From Escherichia coli (GTDB taxonomy: Bacteria; Pseudomonadota; Gammaproteobacteria; Enterobacterales; Enterobacteriaceae): 64,000 nt of DNA. The stretch's first letter is position 1. Every line of letters starts with the position of its first letter. The stretch lies in NCBI RefSeq assembly GCF_030013595.1, contig NZ_CP122768.1. One strand, given 5' to 3'. Below the pieces are notes generated by a model. It saw nothing but the letters and a program-made list of their open reading frames with translations. It was not told the DNA's origin and ran no database searches. The translations under genes were made by a program, and so were the position numbers. Shown here in pieces: positions 32,454 to 47,102 of the stretch.

Positions 32454-32528
<75 letters not shown>

Positions 32529-32531
32529 ATA

Positions 32532-32607
<76 letters not shown>

Positions 32608-32609
32608 AC

Positions 32610-32686
32610 TGGACCGCCACCGGGGACTCGAACCTCGCACACTCAACTTAAAGGGTTGACGCTCTTTCCCGATGAGCTAGTGGCGG
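32610..32686 (-). tRNA. tRNA with nominal anticodon UUU (Lys) but atypical anticodon loop (C at position 33)
   Basis: Acceptor ccgccac/gtggcgg, GGTTCGAGTCC T-loop, anticodon arm tcaac-CCTTTAA-gttga; one mismatch in the T-stem. Confidence 0.45.
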
Positions 32687-32687
32687 T

Positions 32688-32763
32688 TGGTGGCCCTTGC
32701 TGGATTTGAACCAGCGACCTGGCGATTATGAGTCGCTCGCTCTCACCACTGAGCTAAAGGGCC
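32688..32763 (-). tRNA. tRNA-Ile2 (anticodon CAU, ileX/ileZ-like)
   Basis: Sequence closely resembles E. coli minor tRNA-Ile (GGCCC.TTAGCTCAGTGGT.AGAGC…GACTCATAATCGC…GGTTCAA.TCC…GGGCCACCA). Confidence 0.7.
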
Positions 32764-36108: not shown

Positions 36109-36264
36109 TTACTCCTCAGGTTCGTAAGCTGTGAAGACAGCGACCTCCGTCTGGCCGGTTCGGATTCGTACCTCGCAGAGGTCTTTCCTCGTTACCAGTG
36201 CCGTCACTATGACGGTTAAACAGATGACGATCAGGGCGATTAACATCGCCTTTTGCTGCTTCAT
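36109..36264 (-). CDS. hok: Hok/Gef-family type I toxin (51 aa), absent from the ORF track
   Basis: Hand translation: MKQQKAMLIALIVICLTVIVTALVTRKDLCEVRIRTGQTEVAVFTAYEPEE; SD aggag upstream; overlapping short mok-like frame; hallmark Hok TM domain and conserved Cys. Confidence 0.85.
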   Translation of the reverse strand: MKQQKAMLIALIVICLTVIVTALVTRKDLCEVRIRTGQTEVAVFTAYEPEE

Positions 36265-36554
36265 AGCCTGCTTCTCCTTGACCTTTCGGTCCGTAAGAGG
36301 CTAATCTCTATGTGTCGCATAGATATGGCCTCAGATTAATGTTAAGCGTCTTGCAGGACGCGTAATGTTAACTGGGGCTTTTCTCTATCTGCCTTTTGGT
36401 GTTCATGCCTGAGGCAGATAGCCTCAAGCACCCGCAGCAATTCTACTTAACTCTCCTTTTCCCGCAAACCGTTTTTATCCCCATCGGCAAATCGAATACA
36501 CCACCAACGCCACCGCCATCGCAATTCCTACTGTAGTGAATGCCTCAGGCCAGG

Positions 36555-39250: not shown

Positions 39251-39642
39251 GCCATCACCTCCTGAAAATTACCCTGATAAAACGCCAGCACTCGCTGCAT
39301 AACCTCACTCTTCCGGCACTCGCGGCAGATTATGTTCTGGCTCCTGTCGTAGCGGCGTATCTCTCCGTCTGGTAACTTTCGAATCAGCGTCTGGTCAGTT
39401 GTTTTCTCCGGCGTCTTACGCCATTCGCGATACGTCTGCTCTGACGTAAAAACACCGTATTTACCGGACATGTATAAATCGCCACAAGCCAGTACATCCA
39501 CAAGGCAGCGTCGGACCGAATGCCAGCCTGCTCCCGTCGCTCTCTCCAGTTGCGACATCGTCATGCGTCCATTTTTGCGTACCAATCCGATAATTCGTGC
39601 CTTCAGCTCTTCCCGCTGTTCGGGTGTAAAAGGTTTCGCCAT
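39247..39642 (-). CDS. hypothetical protein
   Basis: 131-aa ORF upstream of the replication genes. Confidence 0.35.
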   Translation of the reverse strand: MAKPFTPEQREELKARIIGLVRKNGRMTMSQLERATGAGWHSVRRCLVDVLACGDLYMSGKYGVFTSEQTYREWRKTPEKTTDQTLIRKLPDGEIRRYDRSQNIICRECRKSEVMQRVLAFYQGNFQEVMA

Positions 39643-39671
39643 AAACCCTCCCGGTAAAATTACTTATCAAC

Positions 39672-40337
39672 TCAAACAAAACCTGCCGCTTTCCTGCGTT
39701 CATATTCCTGTTTCAGCAACTCAATTGGAGTTGGCCCCGACGGGCGTTCTGGTGCTGCCAGTTGCCTACGGACGGGTGGAACACTCAGTCCGTTACCAAC
39801 ATGCTTTGCCCATTTCGCTAGTTGCCGTTCTGCAAGCCGTTTTAACTCCCCTTCGGTCATCTGGCGCTCAATCCCCTTTGAACGCAGCTCGAGACAAATG
39901 TGATACAGCACAGGCTGAGACCACGGGTATTTATCGCTTCCGTCGTATCGCCAGGACTCGTTGCGCCAGCGTCGGTACTCCTCCATCACGTTATCCACCG
40001 TCAGACCAAATGGATTTGCCCCGCTCTCCGAAATCAGCGCCACAAACTCAGCCAGGTCCGGAGGCCATGTTTCACCCGCCCGGCAGCGGTCCATGCACTG
40101 GCGGCAGACCTGCCGGATTTGCTGCTCAGTCATCGCGCCAATCTGTGCAATCCAGAGCTTCGAAGGTGCGGCCCCGTTCTTCTGGGTCCAGCGGTTCGAA
40201 TAAACCTCCCCCATGAGTTCCCACAGCTTCCAGGCCGTTTCCGTCGCTGATAAATCCGTTTTCACGTTCCCACTGCTCACGTGCTGCCCGAATTTCCTGA
40301 ACTGCCCGTGATGCGGTGCCACCTGGTGCTGCTGCAT
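39672..40337 (-). CDS. replication protein P-like (helicase loader)
   Basis: Central and C-terminal region resembles lambda P (FVA…, YPWS…, RINRGE-like region); start uncertain because of overlap with the O ORF. Confidence 0.65.
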   Translation of the reverse strand: MQQHQVAPHHGQFRKFGQHVSSGNVKTDLSATETAWKLWELMGEVYSNRWTQKNGAAPSKLWIAQIGAMTEQQIRQVCRQCMDRCRAGETWPPDLAEFVALISESGANPFGLTVDNVMEEYRRWRNESWRYDGSDKYPWSQPVLYHICLELRSKGIERQMTEGELKRLAERQLAKWAKHVGNGLSVPPVRRQLAAPERPSGPTPIELLKQEYERRKAAGFV

Positions 40338-41166
40338 GGTTTACCCCCTTGCTGACTGGTTTAACCTGTGCCCTGACGTGATTTACGTGACGGGCGAATT
40401 TCTGCTCCCACTGAACCTGCGTGAACACTTTGCCCTCATCGCTCCAGTAATCCCGGAATGCGGCAAGTTCAGCAGGTGTAAATTCCGGCTCCGGCAAAGC
40501 CATCCCCCACAACGCAGCCCGTCGTCGAAAATCCCGTGACGGATGCCAGCTATCGGTCATCGGAAATTTTCCGATGGGTTCGCTCAGGCCATCCAGGAAT
40601 ACGGGTGGCACTGCCTGTAACGACAAAACTTCCTGCTCACTGGTCGGAGCACTCTCGCGTGCGTTATGTGTGGGGTTTAGATCTTTGGGTTCCTTTGGGT
40701 TCCGTGATCCGTTTTTGGGTGTCTTTGATGGAAAATTTGGGTGTCTTTGGTTATTTTCCATGCAGCTAAGAGTTCCGTTTTTGGGTCTGTTTTGTGCTGA
40801 AACATAACCATTTTCGGTACTGTTTTTATTAACAGTACCAATTTTACCCACCTTTAAAGACTCCCGTTTTTGGGTGTATTCAGGCTCGGCAACACTTTCT
40901 TCTACACCGATAAGTCGGTACACCACAATTTGCTTTGTTCTGCCTTTTCTCTCACCGGTATCAACAATTAACCCAATCTCCATCAGGTGTCGTAAGCTGT
41001 CCTGCACAGTCTTTTTGTTCAGTTCCGTTACTTCTGCCAGTGCAGATACAGACGGGTATGCACACAAATCGGCACCGCACATATCAGCAAGCCAGGTCAA
41101 TACTGACTTACTGGATGAACTGCCGGTTTTCACCTTTTTAGCCCATCGTAGTGCATCGATACTCAT
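40126..41166 (-). CDS. replication initiator O-like (N-terminal HTH origin-binding domain)
   Basis: Track ORF 40126-41241; start placed at MSIDALRWAKK; iteron array lies inside the gene. Confidence 0.65.
   Translation of the reverse strand: MSIDALRWAKKVKTGSSSSKSVLTWLADMCGADLCAYPSVSALAEVTELNKKTVQDSLRHLMEIGLIVDTGERKGRTKQIVVYRLIGVEESVAEPEYTQKRESLKVGKIGTVNKNSTENGYVSAQNRPKNGTLSCMENNQRHPNFPSKTPKNGSRNPKEPKDLNPTHNARESAPTSEQEVLSLQAVPPVFLDGLSEPIGKFPMTDSWHPSRDFRRRAALWGMALPEPEFTPAELAAFRDYWSDEGKVFTQVQWEQKFARHVNHVRAQVKPVSKGVNHAAAPGGTASRAVQEIRAAREQWERENGFISDGNGLEAVGTHGGGLFEPLDPEERGRTFEALDCTDWRDD
40670..40880. repeat. candidate replication origin: iterons (tttgggt-type repeats) plus AT-rich inverted repeat inside the O-like gene
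   Basis: Repeated …ctttgggttcc/gtttttgggtgtc… motifs and palindrome ggtactgtttttattaacagtacc; lambda ori lies inside O in the same manner. Confidence 0.55.
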
Positions 41167-41689
41167 ACGAACCCCTGGCAGACATTTGTTTATCTGCAAA
41201 GTAATATTGGTATTGCTGACGATACGCGTGCTTGAAAGCAATAGCTTTTTCTATAAGCTCGTCAGTCTCACGTTCCACAACAGCTGGATCCGCAAAAAGC
41301 AGCCCGGACTCCACCACATCGCCATATTCTTTGTTTAACCCGGCGATCATGTACGTAATGCTTTTTCCGTCAGTAATTTCACAATACAACCTGAAATCGC
41401 TGATCCGGATAGCCTCCATAATTGCCGGAATCAGCGCCGTGAATTTTTCCCGCTTATCCCTGGTGTCGATAGCTTTCCAGCGTTCGAATATCTTCACCCG
41501 GTTAACGCCCAGCGCCCGTTGATCAACCGCGCCATCATCAAACGTGACGCGTTGAACATCGATGTTCGGGCGTTCTTTCAGAGCCCAGAAGGCTTCCGTG
41601 ATTAATATCGTCGCCTGCTCCTGTGTCATTCCTGGTCGGCACACCCAGGCATCCAGAGCCTCACAAACCTGTTCAGGGGTGATTTTCAT
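41138..41689 (-). CDS. hypothetical early protein (YdaT/cII-position)
   Basis: 183-aa ORF between the cro-like and O-like genes. Confidence 0.4.
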   Translation of the reverse strand: MKITPEQVCEALDAWVCRPGMTQEQATILITEAFWALKERPNIDVQRVTFDDGAVDQRALGVNRVKIFERWKAIDTRDKREKFTALIPAIMEAIRISDFRLYCEITDGKSITYMIAGLNKEYGDVVESGLLFADPAVVERETDELIEKAIAFKHAYRQQYQYYFADKQMSARGSYEYRCTTMG

Positions 41690-41900
41690 TGTTCAACCGC
41701 CCCGCCCGCTTTGCCTTACGATATTCGTCATAAACTTTGGGGTCGTACTGAAGTTCCCCGCCGGATGCCTCTTGCAGGCGCATCGCGCGACCTTCAGGAA
41801 CCAGTTCCCCCCATGCAGCAATGCTTGCCAGCCTAACTCCTGCGGCATTGGCAAGCTTTGTTTTGCTGCCAAAAAACGCTATAGCATCAATTTTCAACAT
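41673..41900 (-). CDS. Cro/YdaS-like HTH regulator
   Basis: 75-aa ORF divergent from the repressor gene. Confidence 0.6.
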   Translation of the reverse strand: MLKIDAIAFFGSKTKLANAAGVRLASIAAWGELVPEGRAMRLQEASGGELQYDPKVYDEYRKAKRAGRLNNENHP

Positions 41901-41976
41901 ATCGAGCTCCTTAGATTTTCCTAAGGAAACTAGATCGTAGAGAAACCTAAGTCAAGAAAAATTAGAATTCCCTAAT
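41901..41976. promoter_or_regulatory. divergent promoter/operator region with cttagg/cctaag palindromes
   Basis: ccttagATTTTCctaagg palindrome and a further aacctaag half-site between the divergent repressor and cro-like genes. Confidence 0.55.
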
Positions 41977-42384
41977 ATGAAAAACGAAACCTTCGGTGCT
42001 CGCCTCTTACATAGGCGTAAAAAATTAAAACTGTCTCAGGCCGCATTAGGTAAGCTGGTCAAAGTGGCTCACGTAACAATTTCTCAATGGGAAAGAGATG
42101 AAACACAGCCGGCGGGGAAAAGATTATTCGCACTGAGCCAAGCGCTTCAGTGCTCACCGACTTGGCTTCTTTTTGGGGATGAAGATAAACAACCAGGCGA
42201 ACCGATCCCGGATAATCAGCCAGCCATTCTGACAGAAGATCAAAAAGAGTTACTTCAACTGTTCGACGCACTGCCTGAGTCAGAGCAAAAGGCCCTGTTG
42301 TCAGAGATGCGTGCTCGAGTTGAAAATTTCAACAAACTTTTTGAAGAACTACTCAAAGCTCGCAAAAGAAGCGCAAACAAATAA
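41977..42384 (+). CDS. prophage repressor (XRE-family HTH, cI/DicA-like)
   Basis: 135-aa ORF with N-terminal HTH (LSQAALGKLVKVAHVTISQWER); flanked by related operator motifs. Confidence 0.75.
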   Translation: MKNETFGARLLHRRKKLKLSQAALGKLVKVAHVTISQWERDETQPAGKRLFALSQALQCSPTWLLFGDEDKQPGEPIPDNQPAILTEDQKELLQLFDALPESEQKALLSEMRARVENFNKLFEELLKARKRSANK

Positions 42385-42429
42385 TCCCCTTTTTTCTCCA
42401 CACCCTGTAATAAAAAGCACAAACTTTCA

Positions 42430-42520
42430 AACACTTGTGTTTTTTACATCAAAAAACTTAGGTTTTTCTACATAAAAATCTTGACCACCAGCCTTAGGTT
42501 ATTCTAAATTTCATTCATCA
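42430..42520 (+). promoter_or_regulatory. candidate repressor-controlled early-left promoter (TTGACC -35) with two cttaggtt operator half-sites
   Basis: aacttaggttttt and gccttaggttatt flank ttgacc; same half-site as in 41901-41976. Confidence 0.5.
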
Positions 42521-42586
42521 AGACACCGCACGGTGTTCTCAGCAAACAGTTCCGCCACCCCGGCGTTAAGGGGAAATGAGGTCAAC

Positions 42587-42739
42587 ATGGATACTATCGA
42601 TCTTGGCAACAACGAATCTCTGGTATACGGCGTGTTTCCCAACCAGGACGGCACATTCACCGCGATGACGTATACCAAAAGCAAAACGTTTAAAACCGAA
42701 ACTGGCGCTCGTCGCTGGTTAGCCAGAAACACTGACTGA
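42587..42739 (+). CDS. YdfA-like small protein (DUF1391-like)
   Basis: Internal Met of track ORF 42533-42739 gives MDTIDLGNNESLVYGVFPNQDGTF… (~50 aa), first gene of the early-left operon. Confidence 0.5.
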   Translation: MDTIDLGNNESLVYGVFPNQDGTFTAMTYTKSKTFKTETGARRWLARNTD

Positions 42740-44639: not shown

Positions 44640-47102
44640 ATGAGCGCTGATAAAGAAGAAATTGCACTATATTACGAAGCCAAAAATGACAAAGTCAGAA
44701 AACGCCTTGGGATTAAAGGCGGTTTTTACTGGCGCACAGCAAAAAAATTATCGATTGCAATATCACGCGGTGTTGTCGCAATGGACGATGCCGGATTTGA
44801 CGAAGAGGATTTTAAAAAACCTGTTCGCGTCCATTTACCCGTTGTGAATGACCTTCCTCCGGAAGGCGTGTTTGATACCGAATTCTGCAACCGATACGAA
44901 AAAGGCGGGGAAGATGGTATCACAATGGTACTTATCGCGCCCTCTGTTCAGGACAAACCAGCCAGCACTGACAATACCAACGTCAACGGTGAAGACATGA
45001 CTGAGATTGAGGAGAATATGCTCCTGCCAGTTTCAGGTCAGATTCTGCCTGTTCGATGGCTGGCGCAACACAACAGCGAAAAACCGATCACGCACGTTTC
45101 GCGGGACGAACTGCGCGCATTACATAACGCACAGGATGAAAAACTTCCCGCCGTTACCGCGCTGGCCATCTCAAATAAAGCAGCGCAACTCGAACCACTG
45201 GAAATTCGCGATCTCCACAAACTGGTACGCGACACTGACAAAGTTTTCCCTAATCCTGGTAATTCAGACCTGGGACTGATGACCGCTTTTTTCGAAGCAT
45301 ACCTGGGCGCTAACTACACCGATCGCGGTCTGCTTACAAAAGAGTGGATGAAGGGAAATCGTGTTTCACGTATCACCCGCACGGCTTCCGGCGCTAATGC
45401 TGGCGGCGGGAACAAAACCGATCGCAATCCGAATTTAGTACACACCTTCGATACGCTGGATGTGGAGATTGCAGCAGCCACACTTCCGATGGATTTTAAT
45501 ATTTATGAAATTCCGGGCAGCGTTTATCGTCGCGCAAAAGAAGTCGTCCGGAAGAAAGAAAGTCCGTTCAAAGAATGGTCCGCAGCACTTCGCGCAATCC
45601 CGGGTATCCTGGATTATTCCCGTGCCGCTATTTTTGCACTTATCCGGAGCGCCCACCCTGAACTTTACCTCTACAGGGTACGCCTTCAGGTGTATATCAA
45701 CGCCCACTTAACGGAGACTGATCACGAGAATCCTACCGAGGAAACTCTCGCTGCTGCACGACATACACCGGAAAAAGATATCCTGGAAGAAGTTAACCGC
45801 GAACTGGCTGCTGCTAAACACGAAACAGAAGAAGAAAAAAATAATGAGGAAAAATCACAACCGTCTGACGCAATGGCAGATGAACAGGCAACGACTGAAA
45901 CAATGGAGCCGGATACAACTGAACATCGCCAGGACACGCAATCGCTGGATACTCAGGCGCAGATAGATCCGGTTAATCAGGTAAAAGTTACCGCTGACGA
46001 AGTAAACAAAATTATGCAGGCAGCCAATATCAACCAGCCTGACGCCAATCAGTTGCTTGCTGTATCACGTGGTGAATTTGTTGCAGGGATTAGCGACCCG
46101 AATGATCCGAAATGGGTGAAGGGGATTGAAACCCGCGATTCAGTGAATCAGAACCAGCAAGAAATGGAACAGAACGACCAGAAAGCGGAAAAAAACAGCC
46201 CAAATGCGTTACAAAACGAGCCAGAAACGAAACAACCTGAGCCAGTAGCGCAACAGGAATCGGAAAAAGTCTGCACCGCCTGCGGTCAGAGCGGTGGCGG
46301 CAGCTGCCCTGATTGTGGCGCGGTGATGGGCGACGCAACATACCAGGAAACATTCGATGAAGAGAATCAGGTTGAAGTTCAGGAAAATGATCCGGAGGAA
46401 ATGGAAGGCGCTGAACATCCACACAAGGAGAATGCTGGCAGCGCTCAGGACCACGCCAGCGATAATGAAACTGGCGAGACGGCAGATCCCTTAATTGCGG
46501 TGAACGGTCATCACGTTATCACATCCACCAGCAGAGTGTGGTACCACCTGATGATCGACCTTGAAACAATGGGAACCAACACCAATGCGCCCATCGTGGT
46601 TATTGGTGCGGTTTTCTTCGACCCACAAACAGGGGAAATCGGGCCAGTATTTTATATCGTTATCAGTCTGACTGACGCAATGAATACAGGGGCTGTTCCT
46701 GACGGTGGAACCATCGAATGGTGGCTGAAGCAGTCCAGTGAAGCCAGAGCTGCCATTTTAACAGACCAGGTAAAACTGAAGGATGCCCTTTCGCGGTTTC
46801 GGGAGTTCATCAACGAATACTCAGATGAAAAATTCGTTCAGGTATGGGGTAATGGTGCAACTTTCGATAACGCAATTTTGCGCACCTCATACGAACGTCT
46901 GGACATCCCCTGCCCGTGGCGCTACTACAACGATCGCGATGTACGCACAATCGTTGAGCTGGGAAAAACCATCGGTTTTGATGCCAGAACAGCTATCCCG
47001 TTCGAAGGTGTACCCCACAATGCACTGGATGATGCCCGTCACCAGGCGAAATACGTTTCAGTAATCTGGCAAAAACTGATCCCGAGTCAGGCTGATTTTT
47101 AA
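44640..47102 (+). CDS. large multidomain protein: N-terminal domain of unknown function, acidic linker, CxxC-x-CxxC zinc ribbon, C-terminal DnaQ-like (DEDDh) 3'-5' exonuclease domain
   Basis: 820-aa ORF; C-terminus has DLET…, FDNAIL and HNALDDA motifs in exonuclease order; zinc ribbon CTACGQSGGGSCPDCG; long E/Q/D-rich linker. Confidence 0.6.
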   Translation: MSADKEEIALYYEAKNDKVRKRLGIKGGFYWRTAKKLSIAISRGVVAMDDAGFDEEDFKKPVRVHLPVVNDLPPEGVFDTEFCNRYEKGGEDGITMVLIAPSVQDKPASTDNTNVNGEDMTEIEENMLLPVSGQILPVRWLAQHNSEKPITHVSRDELRALHNAQDEKLPAVTALAISNKAAQLEPLEIRDLHKLVRDTDKVFPNPGNSDLGLMTAFFEAYLGANYTDRGLLTKEWMKGNRVSRITRTASGANAGGGNKTDRNPNLVHTFDTLDVEIAAATLPMDFNIYEIPGSVYRRAKEVVRKKESPFKEWSAALRAIPGILDYSRAAIFALIRSAHPELYLYRVRLQVYINAHLTETDHENPTEETLAAARHTPEKDILEEVNRELAAAKHETEEEKNNEEKSQPSDAMADEQATTETMEPDTTEHRQDTQSLDTQAQIDPVNQVKVTADEVNKIMQAANINQPDANQLLAVSRGEFVAGISDPNDPKWVKGIETRDSVNQNQQEMEQNDQKAEKNSPNALQNEPETKQPEPVAQQESEKVCTACGQSGGGSCPDCGAVMGDATYQETFDEENQVEVQENDPEEMEGAEHPHKENAGSAQDHASDNETGETADPLIAVNGHHVITSTSRVWYHLMIDLETMGTNTNAPIVVIGAVFFDPQTGEIGPVFYIVISLTDAMNTGAVPDGGTIEWWLKQSSEARAAILTDQVKLKDALSRFREFINEYSDEKFVQVWGNGATFDNAILRTSYERLDIPCPWRYYNDRDVRTIVELGKTIGFDARTAIPFEGVPHNALDDARHQAKYVSVIWQKLIPSQADF

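Follow-up and report, generated by a model that had tools for sequence, protein, structure and literature searches.

A conserved iteron array in the linker-coding part of a prophage initiator gene of Escherichia coli is a probable lambdoid replication origin

Introduction

Does a cluster of short repeats inside a phage replication gene serve as a replication origin, or does it simply reflect the protein that the gene encodes? This question is raised by a prophage locus in Escherichia coli (RefSeq assembly GCF_030013595.1, contig NZ_CP122768.1), of which one stretch of 64,000 nucleotides, referred to here as the window, was analyzed. A preliminary description of the window had proposed that repeats containing TTTGGGT, followed by an AT-rich segment with a perfect palindrome, formed a phage origin organized like that of phage lambda (ori-lambda) inside an O-like gene, within an intact and potentially functional replication module. 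We found that the repeats are clustered in the part of a replication initiator gene (40126-41166, minus strand) that encodes a linker between two domains, and that they are conserved as DNA among related initiator genes. The array is probably the replication origin of a lambdoid prophage, with initiator-binding iterons located in the initiator's own gene; the comparative evidence is strong, and we give this reading a probability of roughly 80%.

Repeat array in the initiator gene

The five repeat strings quoted in the preliminary description were all found in the sequence at the positions given for them. The heptamer TTTGGGT occurs eight times in the 64-kb window when both strands are counted, and six of the eight are clustered at 40684-40875, where they start at 40684, 40694, 40714, 40736, 40780 and 40869, on the plus strand only. 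Six heptamers per 192 nt correspond to a Poisson P of 2e-14 against a shuffle-derived background, or about 1e-11 after correction for all windows. The repeats lie within the O-like gene, as had been proposed; the gene and the repeats are both on the minus strand, however, and on that strand the repeat unit is the 11-bp sequence CCCAAAAACGG. This 11-mer (at most one mismatch) was found three times in 64 kb, as was the 14-mer CCGTTTTTGGGTST (at most two mismatches), and every occurrence of either was in the array. The full iteron unit comprises approximately 18-21 bp around the core.

A position matrix was built from relatives only, with the window excluded, and was then scanned over the 64 kb. 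The scan revealed exactly four sites of at least 6 bits, all of them in the array and on the gene strand, with scores of 18-31 bits. Iteron I1 (40860-40880, core 40864-40874; AATACACCCAAAAACGGGAGT; 28.0 bits) encodes TQKR and has a counterpart in Edwardsiella phage EPP-1 in the identical reading frame. Iteron I3 (40804-40824, core 40808-40818; AACAGTACCGAAAATGGTTAT) scored 18.0 bits, and the consensus ACCGAAAACGG is present at its position in several E. coli alleles. Iterons I4 (40771-40791, core 40775-40785; AACAGACCCAAAAACGGAACT; 30.8 bits) and I6 (40705-40725, core 40709-40719; AAGACACCCAAAAACGGATCA; 23.5 bits) both encode PKNG. The distances between successive strong iterons are uneven, at 56, 33 and 66 bp.

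Weaker copies were also found on the same strand, so that four strong and approximately four weak copies together span nt 287-484 of the gene. The degenerate iteron I2 (40838-40849; GGGTAAAATTGG) falls under the matrix threshold and aligns with a full iteron of EPP-1, the encoded peptide being KIG in the window and KNG in EPP-1. The variant iteron I5 (40730-40748; AAAGACACCCAAATTTTCC), which encodes PNF, retains the left half of the unit, and EPP-1 keeps an equivalent copy, AAAGACACCCAATTTTGG. Two tandem short half-copies (40683-40703) consist of GGAACCCAAAG twice. Thus, two of these three weaker copies have direct counterparts in EPP-1. We also observed that the 3' edge of I6 carries GATC (40706), that GATC (Dam) sites at 40680 and 40706 flank the last iterons, and that GGATC is found immediately after the last full iteron in EPP-1 and phiV10 as well.

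Conservation of the repeat among related initiators

The preliminary description had staked its reading on the repeats being conserved among homologous O genes, and they were found to be conserved well in excess of what the encoded protein would demand. A tblastn search with the N-terminal 169 residues of the initiator revealed homologues at 32-58% identity in phages of Edwardsiella, Escherichia (phiV10-like), Vibrio, Acinetobacter, Burkholderia and others. The core (A/C)CC(A/G)AAAACGG is repeated two to six times in EPP-1, phiV10, Vibrio phage H20 and Acinetobacter phage LZ35, whose N-terminal domains (N-domains) are 35-58% identical to that of the window, and the copies are always on the coding strand, approximately 260-450 nt into the gene. 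Burkholderia phage Bcep176 contains degenerate copies of the motif only. An earlier scan of viral contigs had returned only loci with 99-100% identical N-domains; when a distant family member was used as the first query, the IMG/VR viral contig set yielded 44 distinct N-domains. Among these 44, the 11-mer gave 84 matches within the gene, almost all at nt 250-450, compared with two in the flanks and none on the reverse strand. The exact motif accompanies 34 of the 44 N-domains, and the other ten carry related CC-N6-GG repeats in the same place, for example GTACCAACATTGGAAC.

One sub-clade with the putative recognition region EDCQINKKTLFKIL carries CCAAC(A/G)TTGG in place of CCAAAAACGG. In the sub-clade loci L120, L139, L149 and L167 (nt ~1790-1950 of each), the repeats are CCAAC(A/G)TTGG or GTACCAATATTGGTAC. 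The paired changes in this single clade hint at co-evolution of the recognition region and the iteron. A strong dyad symmetry of the iteron was also considered and was rejected, as the symmetry in the family matrix is weak (best correlation, 0.37) and truly palindromic units (for example GTACCAATATTGGTAC) are present in a few sub-clades only.

The YdaU protein of the Rac prophage provides a complementary comparison. In Rac-SA53, the C-terminal half of ydaU is approximately 90% identical to the window at the DNA level, the N-domain is unrelated and the CCCAAAAACGG array is absent. The match spans 40100-40686 only, and its end coincides exactly with the downstream boundary of the array. These alignments indicate that the motif tracks the N-terminal domain of the initiator. 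With an unrelated N-domain and no array in Rac YdaU, the specificity of the Rac origin must therefore differ. In recombinational exchange, the N-domain appears to move with the iterons as one unit and the DnaT-like domain with the loader as a second, the boundary being at approximately 40686. This agrees with the classical rule for lambdoid phages, which assigns the iterons and the N-terminal part of O to one specificity unit and P and the C-terminal part of O to a second.

Selection on DNA in the linker-coding segment

Translation of the 11-mer was found to differ between copies, which are read in three frames as PKNG, QKR and PKT. We counted codons in 56 P[KE]NG peptides from 49 distinct genes. 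The proline codon was CCC in all 56, compared with 15% elsewhere in the same genes; the lysine codon was AAA in 47 of 47, compared with 65% elsewhere; and the asparagine codon was AAC in 52 of 56, compared with 43% elsewhere. The use of three reading frames and the fixed codons therefore argue for selection on the DNA, and the segment illustrates cleanly how a coding region can be constrained at the DNA level, with a single motif kept in three frames.

Substitutions among 48 E. coli variants revealed different patterns in the two parts of the protein. In the linker, seven substitutions were synonymous and 21 were non-synonymous, without codon-position bias, which points to a weak protein-level constraint. 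In the N-domain, 15 were synonymous and one was non-synonymous, a pattern indicative of strong purifying selection.

Domain structure of the initiator

The initiator gene encodes 346 residues, and the same open reading frame (ORF) is called by the NCBI Prokaryotic Genome Annotation Pipeline (PGAP) and matches a PHROG replication initiation protein family (E = 2e-89). The protein is composed of a winged-helix N-domain (residues 1-90), a disordered linker (approximately residues 91-195) whose coding sequence holds the iterons, and a DnaT-like domain (residues 194-270); the corresponding Pfam domains are HTH_36 and DnaT (DnaT E = 2e-17). In the AlphaFold model, the predicted local distance difference test score was 93-98 over residues 1-90 and 50-57 over residues 91-200, and the latter region is predicted to be disordered. 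The predicted fold of the N-domain resembles DNA binders of the MarR, ArsR and Lrs14 type, which are winged-helix regulators. Residues 194-270 are homologous to the C-terminal single-stranded DNA (ssDNA)-binding domain of DnaT (PDB 6AEP and 4OU6, E = 1e-19). An assignment of the whole protein as a DnaT equivalog was rejected, since only residues 194-278 match DnaT (its residues 82-166) and the NCBIfam score was 92.6 against a cut-off of 201.

The term O-like, used in the preliminary description, applies to the position and architecture of the gene, with iterons in the linker-coding part, but not to the protein family. Membership in the lambda O family (Pfam PF04492, Phage_rep_O) was rejected (E = 0.68), and an hhalign comparison of the N-domain family with lambda O gave a probability of 1.9%, at which homology is undetectable. 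The PHROG matches of the initiator to O-like families were likewise weak (E = 4e-12 to 1e-7). Taken from its sequence, the initiator appears to be a functional analogue of lambda O that stands outside the O family.

Comparison with known origins

We compared the locus with ori-lambda as found in lambda and in lambdoid and Shiga toxin (Stx) phages such as 933W and P27. In both, the repeats are inside the initiator's own gene, in the part that encodes the interdomain linker: the four iterons of ori-lambda are at nt 349-433 of O, and the four strong sites of the window are at nt 287-462 of its gene. In both, the repeats are accompanied by an AT-rich tract, a gene for a P-type loader is directly downstream, and analogues of cro and cII are upstream. 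The lambda iteron TCCCTCAAAACGAGGGA (lambda ori, 1035-1119 of locus L169) and the iteron of the window family CCCAAAAACGGG (40705-40880) share the pattern CCC..AAAAC..GGG, although the window core has 3 bp fewer separating its CCC and GGG arms and is only weakly dyad-symmetric. This likeness could reflect distant common ancestry of the initiator-iteron pairs, even though the proteins have no detectable similarity. The six-iteron origins of Stx phages have extra weak iterons (PMC7466680), which are paralleled by the weak copies in the window array. The overall design was thus found to be similar to ori-lambda but not identical to it. In contrast to lambda, the window initiator is outside Phage_rep_O and has a DnaT-like C-terminal domain, the spacing of the repeats is irregular, and the array encloses the AT-rich tract, which in lambda follows the four iterons.

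Between the Rac module (ydaU-ydaV, oriJ) and the window, the ~90% DNA identity described above covers the C-terminal initiator half and the beginning of the loader gene, and the two also have in common an immunity context of the dicA/dicC/ydaT type. The oriJ of the cryptic prophage Rac has been reported to be active (PMC3945230). Phages phiV10 and epsilon15-like phages, EPP-1, H20 and LZ35/AP22 share the winged-helix N-domain family, the iteron core and its position in the gene, and differ in copy number, spacing and C-terminal domains. In particular, phiV10 also has the DnaT-like C-terminal domain and a P-like loader, while in LZ35 a gene for a DnaB-like helicase is next after the initiator. 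No origin is annotated in the records of phiV10, EPP-1, H20 and LZ35/AP22.

Plasmid iteron origins of the RepA, pi and RepE type consist of direct repeats of approximately 20 bp, recognized by a winged-helix initiator, with an adjacent AT-rich region. The window resembles them in having ~20-bp direct repeats in one orientation, an AT-rich region and a winged-helix initiator, which would bind the repeats. In contrast, the window array is inside a coding sequence and is not accompanied by a DnaA box, and its initiator has one winged helix and a DnaT-like domain instead of the Rep fold with two winged helices. Helicase loading is presumably through the phage P-like protein, unlike in the plasmid type.

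AT-rich tract and inverted repeat

Profiles of nearest-neighbour stability and composition revealed an AT-rich segment with 28% GC at 40797-40846. No other 50 bp of the gene is less stable, and the segment ranks in the top 0.6% of 50-bp windows in the 64 kb. The segment exists as had been described, but it does not simply follow the repeats; it is embedded in the array, between I1 and I4, so that a single strong iteron lies to one side of it and the remaining ones to the other. We consider it the best candidate for a DNA-unwinding element and, at the same time, the weakest link of the origin model. The DNA downstream of the array is GC-rich in the window, and because Rac-type homology begins at approximately 40686, this DNA belongs to the C-terminal exchange unit. 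Additionally, three tandem 12-bp repeats, AACCAGTCATAT, which encode QSYN repeats, were found immediately 3' of the iterons in phiV10 (locus L002, 2409-2444). They recall the AT-rich 13-mers of unwinding elements, and the window has no equivalent.

The string quoted as a perfect palindrome is present, but it was found to consist of 9-bp arms (40816-40824 and 40831-40839) around a non-palindromic 6-nt spacer, and it is not conserved. As a hairpin in ssDNA, the inverted repeat has a predicted energy of -7.3 kcal/mol (z = -4.8), and approximately ten inverted repeats of such size are present in the window compared with 2.6 in shuffled sequences. Among 82 closely related loci, the perfect form was seen in about 9 only; symmetry is lost in the common allele, GGTGCTGTT, and EPP-1 lacks the inverted repeat. 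One arm is the right-hand flank of I2 and the other is the left-hand flank of I3. In the family consensus AGTCCCAAAAACGGGACT, the two flanks (AGTCCC...GGGACT) complement one another, because of which neighbouring units create an inverted repeat automatically. A functional or cruciform origin element was rejected on the grounds that the repeat is broken in most close alleles and absent from EPP-1, that its arms are iteron flanks and that the window contains about ten others of comparable size; the inverted repeat is most likely a lineage-specific by-product of two adjacent, partly dyad-symmetric iterons.

Genetic neighbourhood of the array

The array is located in an operon in which a divergent repressor gene (41977-42384, plus strand) is followed by the cro-like gene (41673-41900, minus strand), the cII-like/YdaT gene (41138-41689, minus strand), the initiator and the P-like helicase loader. 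The cro-like and cII-like genes were identified by PHROG matches and PGAP names; YdaS and YdaT have been argued to be analogues of Cro and CII, with an 'o' gene downstream (PMC8630535). The loader gene (39672-40133, minus strand; 153 residues) is named replication protein P by PGAP and matches the PHROG family of P-like helicase loaders (E = 1e-62). In BLASTP comparisons, the protein matched phiV10 P (5e-23, 28% identity) and lambda P (5e-7, 23% identity over 109 residues).

The open frame of the P-like gene reaches 40337 (221 residues) and so overlaps the 3' end of the initiator gene by 211 nt in another frame (40126-40337). Within the 221-residue frame, residue 18 is where homology to phiV10 P begins, whereas the PGAP start is at 40133 (153 residues). 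Substitution patterns in the 48 E. coli variants favour neither frame in the overlap, which could be a true dual-coding stretch or the trace of an N-terminally shortened P. A scan of 39500-42600 for promoters and terminators revealed no signal above shuffled expectation.

Discussion

How might the array work? The analysis shows the repeats, their conservation as DNA, their confinement to genes with this N-domain, the arrangement of domains and the adjacent loader gene, whereas binding, unwinding at the tract, the part played by the DnaT-like domain and origin activity in this prophage are inferred. In the proposed scheme, early transcription from a promoter on the cro side would lead to synthesis of the initiator, and rightward-type transcription would enter the origin through the cro- and cII-like genes. 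The N-terminal winged helix would then bind the four strong iterons (40860-40880, 40804-40824, 40771-40791 and 40705-40725) and the weaker copies, and the resulting nucleoprotein complex may destabilize the tract of 28% GC at 40797-40846 that lies between iterons. Finally, the ssDNA-binding, DnaT-like domain and the P-like loader would bring the host DnaB helicase onto the opened DNA. If so, the array is apparently a new and undescribed member of a well-known type of origin, built on a widely conserved 11-base repeat, and since the design follows textbook lambda, it is a useful annotation rather than a surprise.

A more specific proposal goes further, and we regard it as tentative. The array may be the origin of a large, experimentally untouched family of winged-helix initiators whose enterobacterial members also have a DnaT-like ssDNA-binding domain, and this domain would make helicase loading copy the replication-restart primosome of the host. 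The initiator would bind the ssDNA that had just been opened and hand over DnaB from the P-like loader, and this step would replace the O-P contact of lambda. If this were true, lambdoid modules would contain a second and mechanistically distinct solution to helicase loading. Papers on the Eru replication types contain no discussion of DnaT-like initiators, iterons or origins.

Several results weigh against the reading of the array as an origin. Among 41 near-identical E. coli alleles, 5 of 44 sites were variable in the iteron cores, compared with 23 of 154 in the remaining linker (P = 0.63); this shallow footprint is uninformative at that depth, and the signal for DNA constraint comes from the deep comparison. 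The least stable 40 bp is just downstream of the array in 25 of 39 iteron-bearing relatives but inside the array in the window, and because the position of the tract differs from that in most relatives, the unwinding site is uncertain. With regard to helical phasing, the array fits an 11-bp period (R = 0.81-0.97, nominal P ~0.01-0.02), which is a weak result obtained with 4-7 sites, seven periods tried and spacings constrained by the coding frame, and this phasing is not common to phiV10 or H20; relatives space their copies at 18 or 24 bp. A scan of 40100-41300 revealed no DnaA box (TTATCCACA, at most one mismatch), and no site matching the consensus of integration host factor (IHF) was found. 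Because the lambda origin is not known to depend on DnaA boxes, we graded these absences as neutral. A literature search on the motif and on iterons of phiV10-like or DnaT-like initiators found no paper describing such an iteron or origin, which is not proof of absence, and older work on oriJ and epsilon15 was outside its coverage. The last adverse point concerns the state of the prophage. The closest matches in the phage database, with 97.9% DNA identity over 40100-41250, are the PPompW prophages of E. coli O145:H28, which are reported to have pseudogenes and deletions and to be defective in both packaging and lysis (PMC8112680).

That state leads to the strongest of the alternatives, in which a properly constructed origin has fallen silent as a relic of a defective prophage, and the module no longer fires in this strain. 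In addition to the decay of the PPompW prophages, which are not packaged, a few related loci have truncated initiator genes (193, 205 or 267 residues) and the cro-like gene of strain RM12581 is frameshifted. In the window, however, all four ORFs (cro-like, cII-like, initiator and P-like) are open, the full 346-residue initiator is kept in 70 of 80 related prophage loci, and the N-domain carries the signature of purifying selection described above (15 synonymous substitutions to one non-synonymous). Moreover, PPompW prophages still excise after treatment with mitomycin C (PMC8112680), and the related cryptic prophage Rac is reported to retain an active oriJ (PMC3945230). We therefore consider a silent relic rather unlikely and origin activity in this strain plausible. 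As for the proposal of an intact and potentially functional module, the initiator and P-like ORFs are indeed intact, and the module may be functional.

In a second alternative, the array is a cluster of protein-binding sites with another role, and the true origin is elsewhere. The sites might serve the initiator's autoregulation or titration, act in replication-based exclusion of related phages, or be the target of some host protein or of another phage protein. The lambda ori region cloned alone reportedly causes replicative inhibition of related phages. The AT-rich tract is placed differently from that of relatives, and the intergenic segments 41954-41983 and 42405-42484 are even less stable than 40797-40846; both points would fit an origin at another site. 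By contrast, there is no second cluster of the motif anywhere in the 64 kb, and a position within the initiator gene, beside the gene for the helicase loader, is the canonical layout of a lambdoid origin. A site for a host factor is unlikely because the motif, which tracks the N-domain, is kept across hosts as different as Vibrio and Acinetobacter. On balance, a different role for the array seems improbable.

Finally, the notion that the repeats merely reflect a low-complexity PKNG linker that arose by slippage or duplication, with no function of the DNA itself, is consistent with the predicted disorder of the encoded linker, with its mostly non-synonymous substitutions and with the variation of copy number and spacing between relatives, but it is highly improbable. 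It fails because copies of a single 11-mer, read in three frames, yield the unrelated peptides PKNG, QKR and PKT, with codons fixed against the usage of the same genes (CCC in 56 of 56 compared with 15%), and because the motif keeps to a single strand and a single location and is confined to genes with this N-domain.

Distribution and other features of the window

The segment containing the N-domain and the repeats was found at an identity of at least 95% in 907 of 5,426 complete E. coli genomes, including strains of O157:H7, O145, O111 and O121. In these strains, the prophages that contain the module encode type III effectors and act as landing pads for Stx phages (PMC8112680). If the array is the origin, a known origin and its recognition sequence would provide a handle on the in situ replication of 'defective' prophages after induction, and such replication would amplify neighbouring virulence genes. 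A cluster of CCCAAAAACGG on one strand in the linker-coding part of an initiator gene could also be used as a signature for annotating origins in phages of Gammaproteobacteria and possibly Betaproteobacteria.

Some further features were observed in the same window. A cluster of four tRNA genes (Gly-TCC, Thr-TGT, Lys-TTT and Met-CAT) is located at 32454-32763 on the minus strand. The sok antitoxin RNA (Rfam RF01794, 108 bits) is matched over its full length at 36262-36433, also on the minus strand, which indicates a toxin-antitoxin locus of the hok/sok type a few kilobases from the replication module. An ORF for an exonuclease of 820 residues is intact at 44640-47102 (plus strand) and is RecE/exonuclease VIII-like by its context; its counterpart in the PPompW prophage of Stx2_14040 is annotated as frameshifted.

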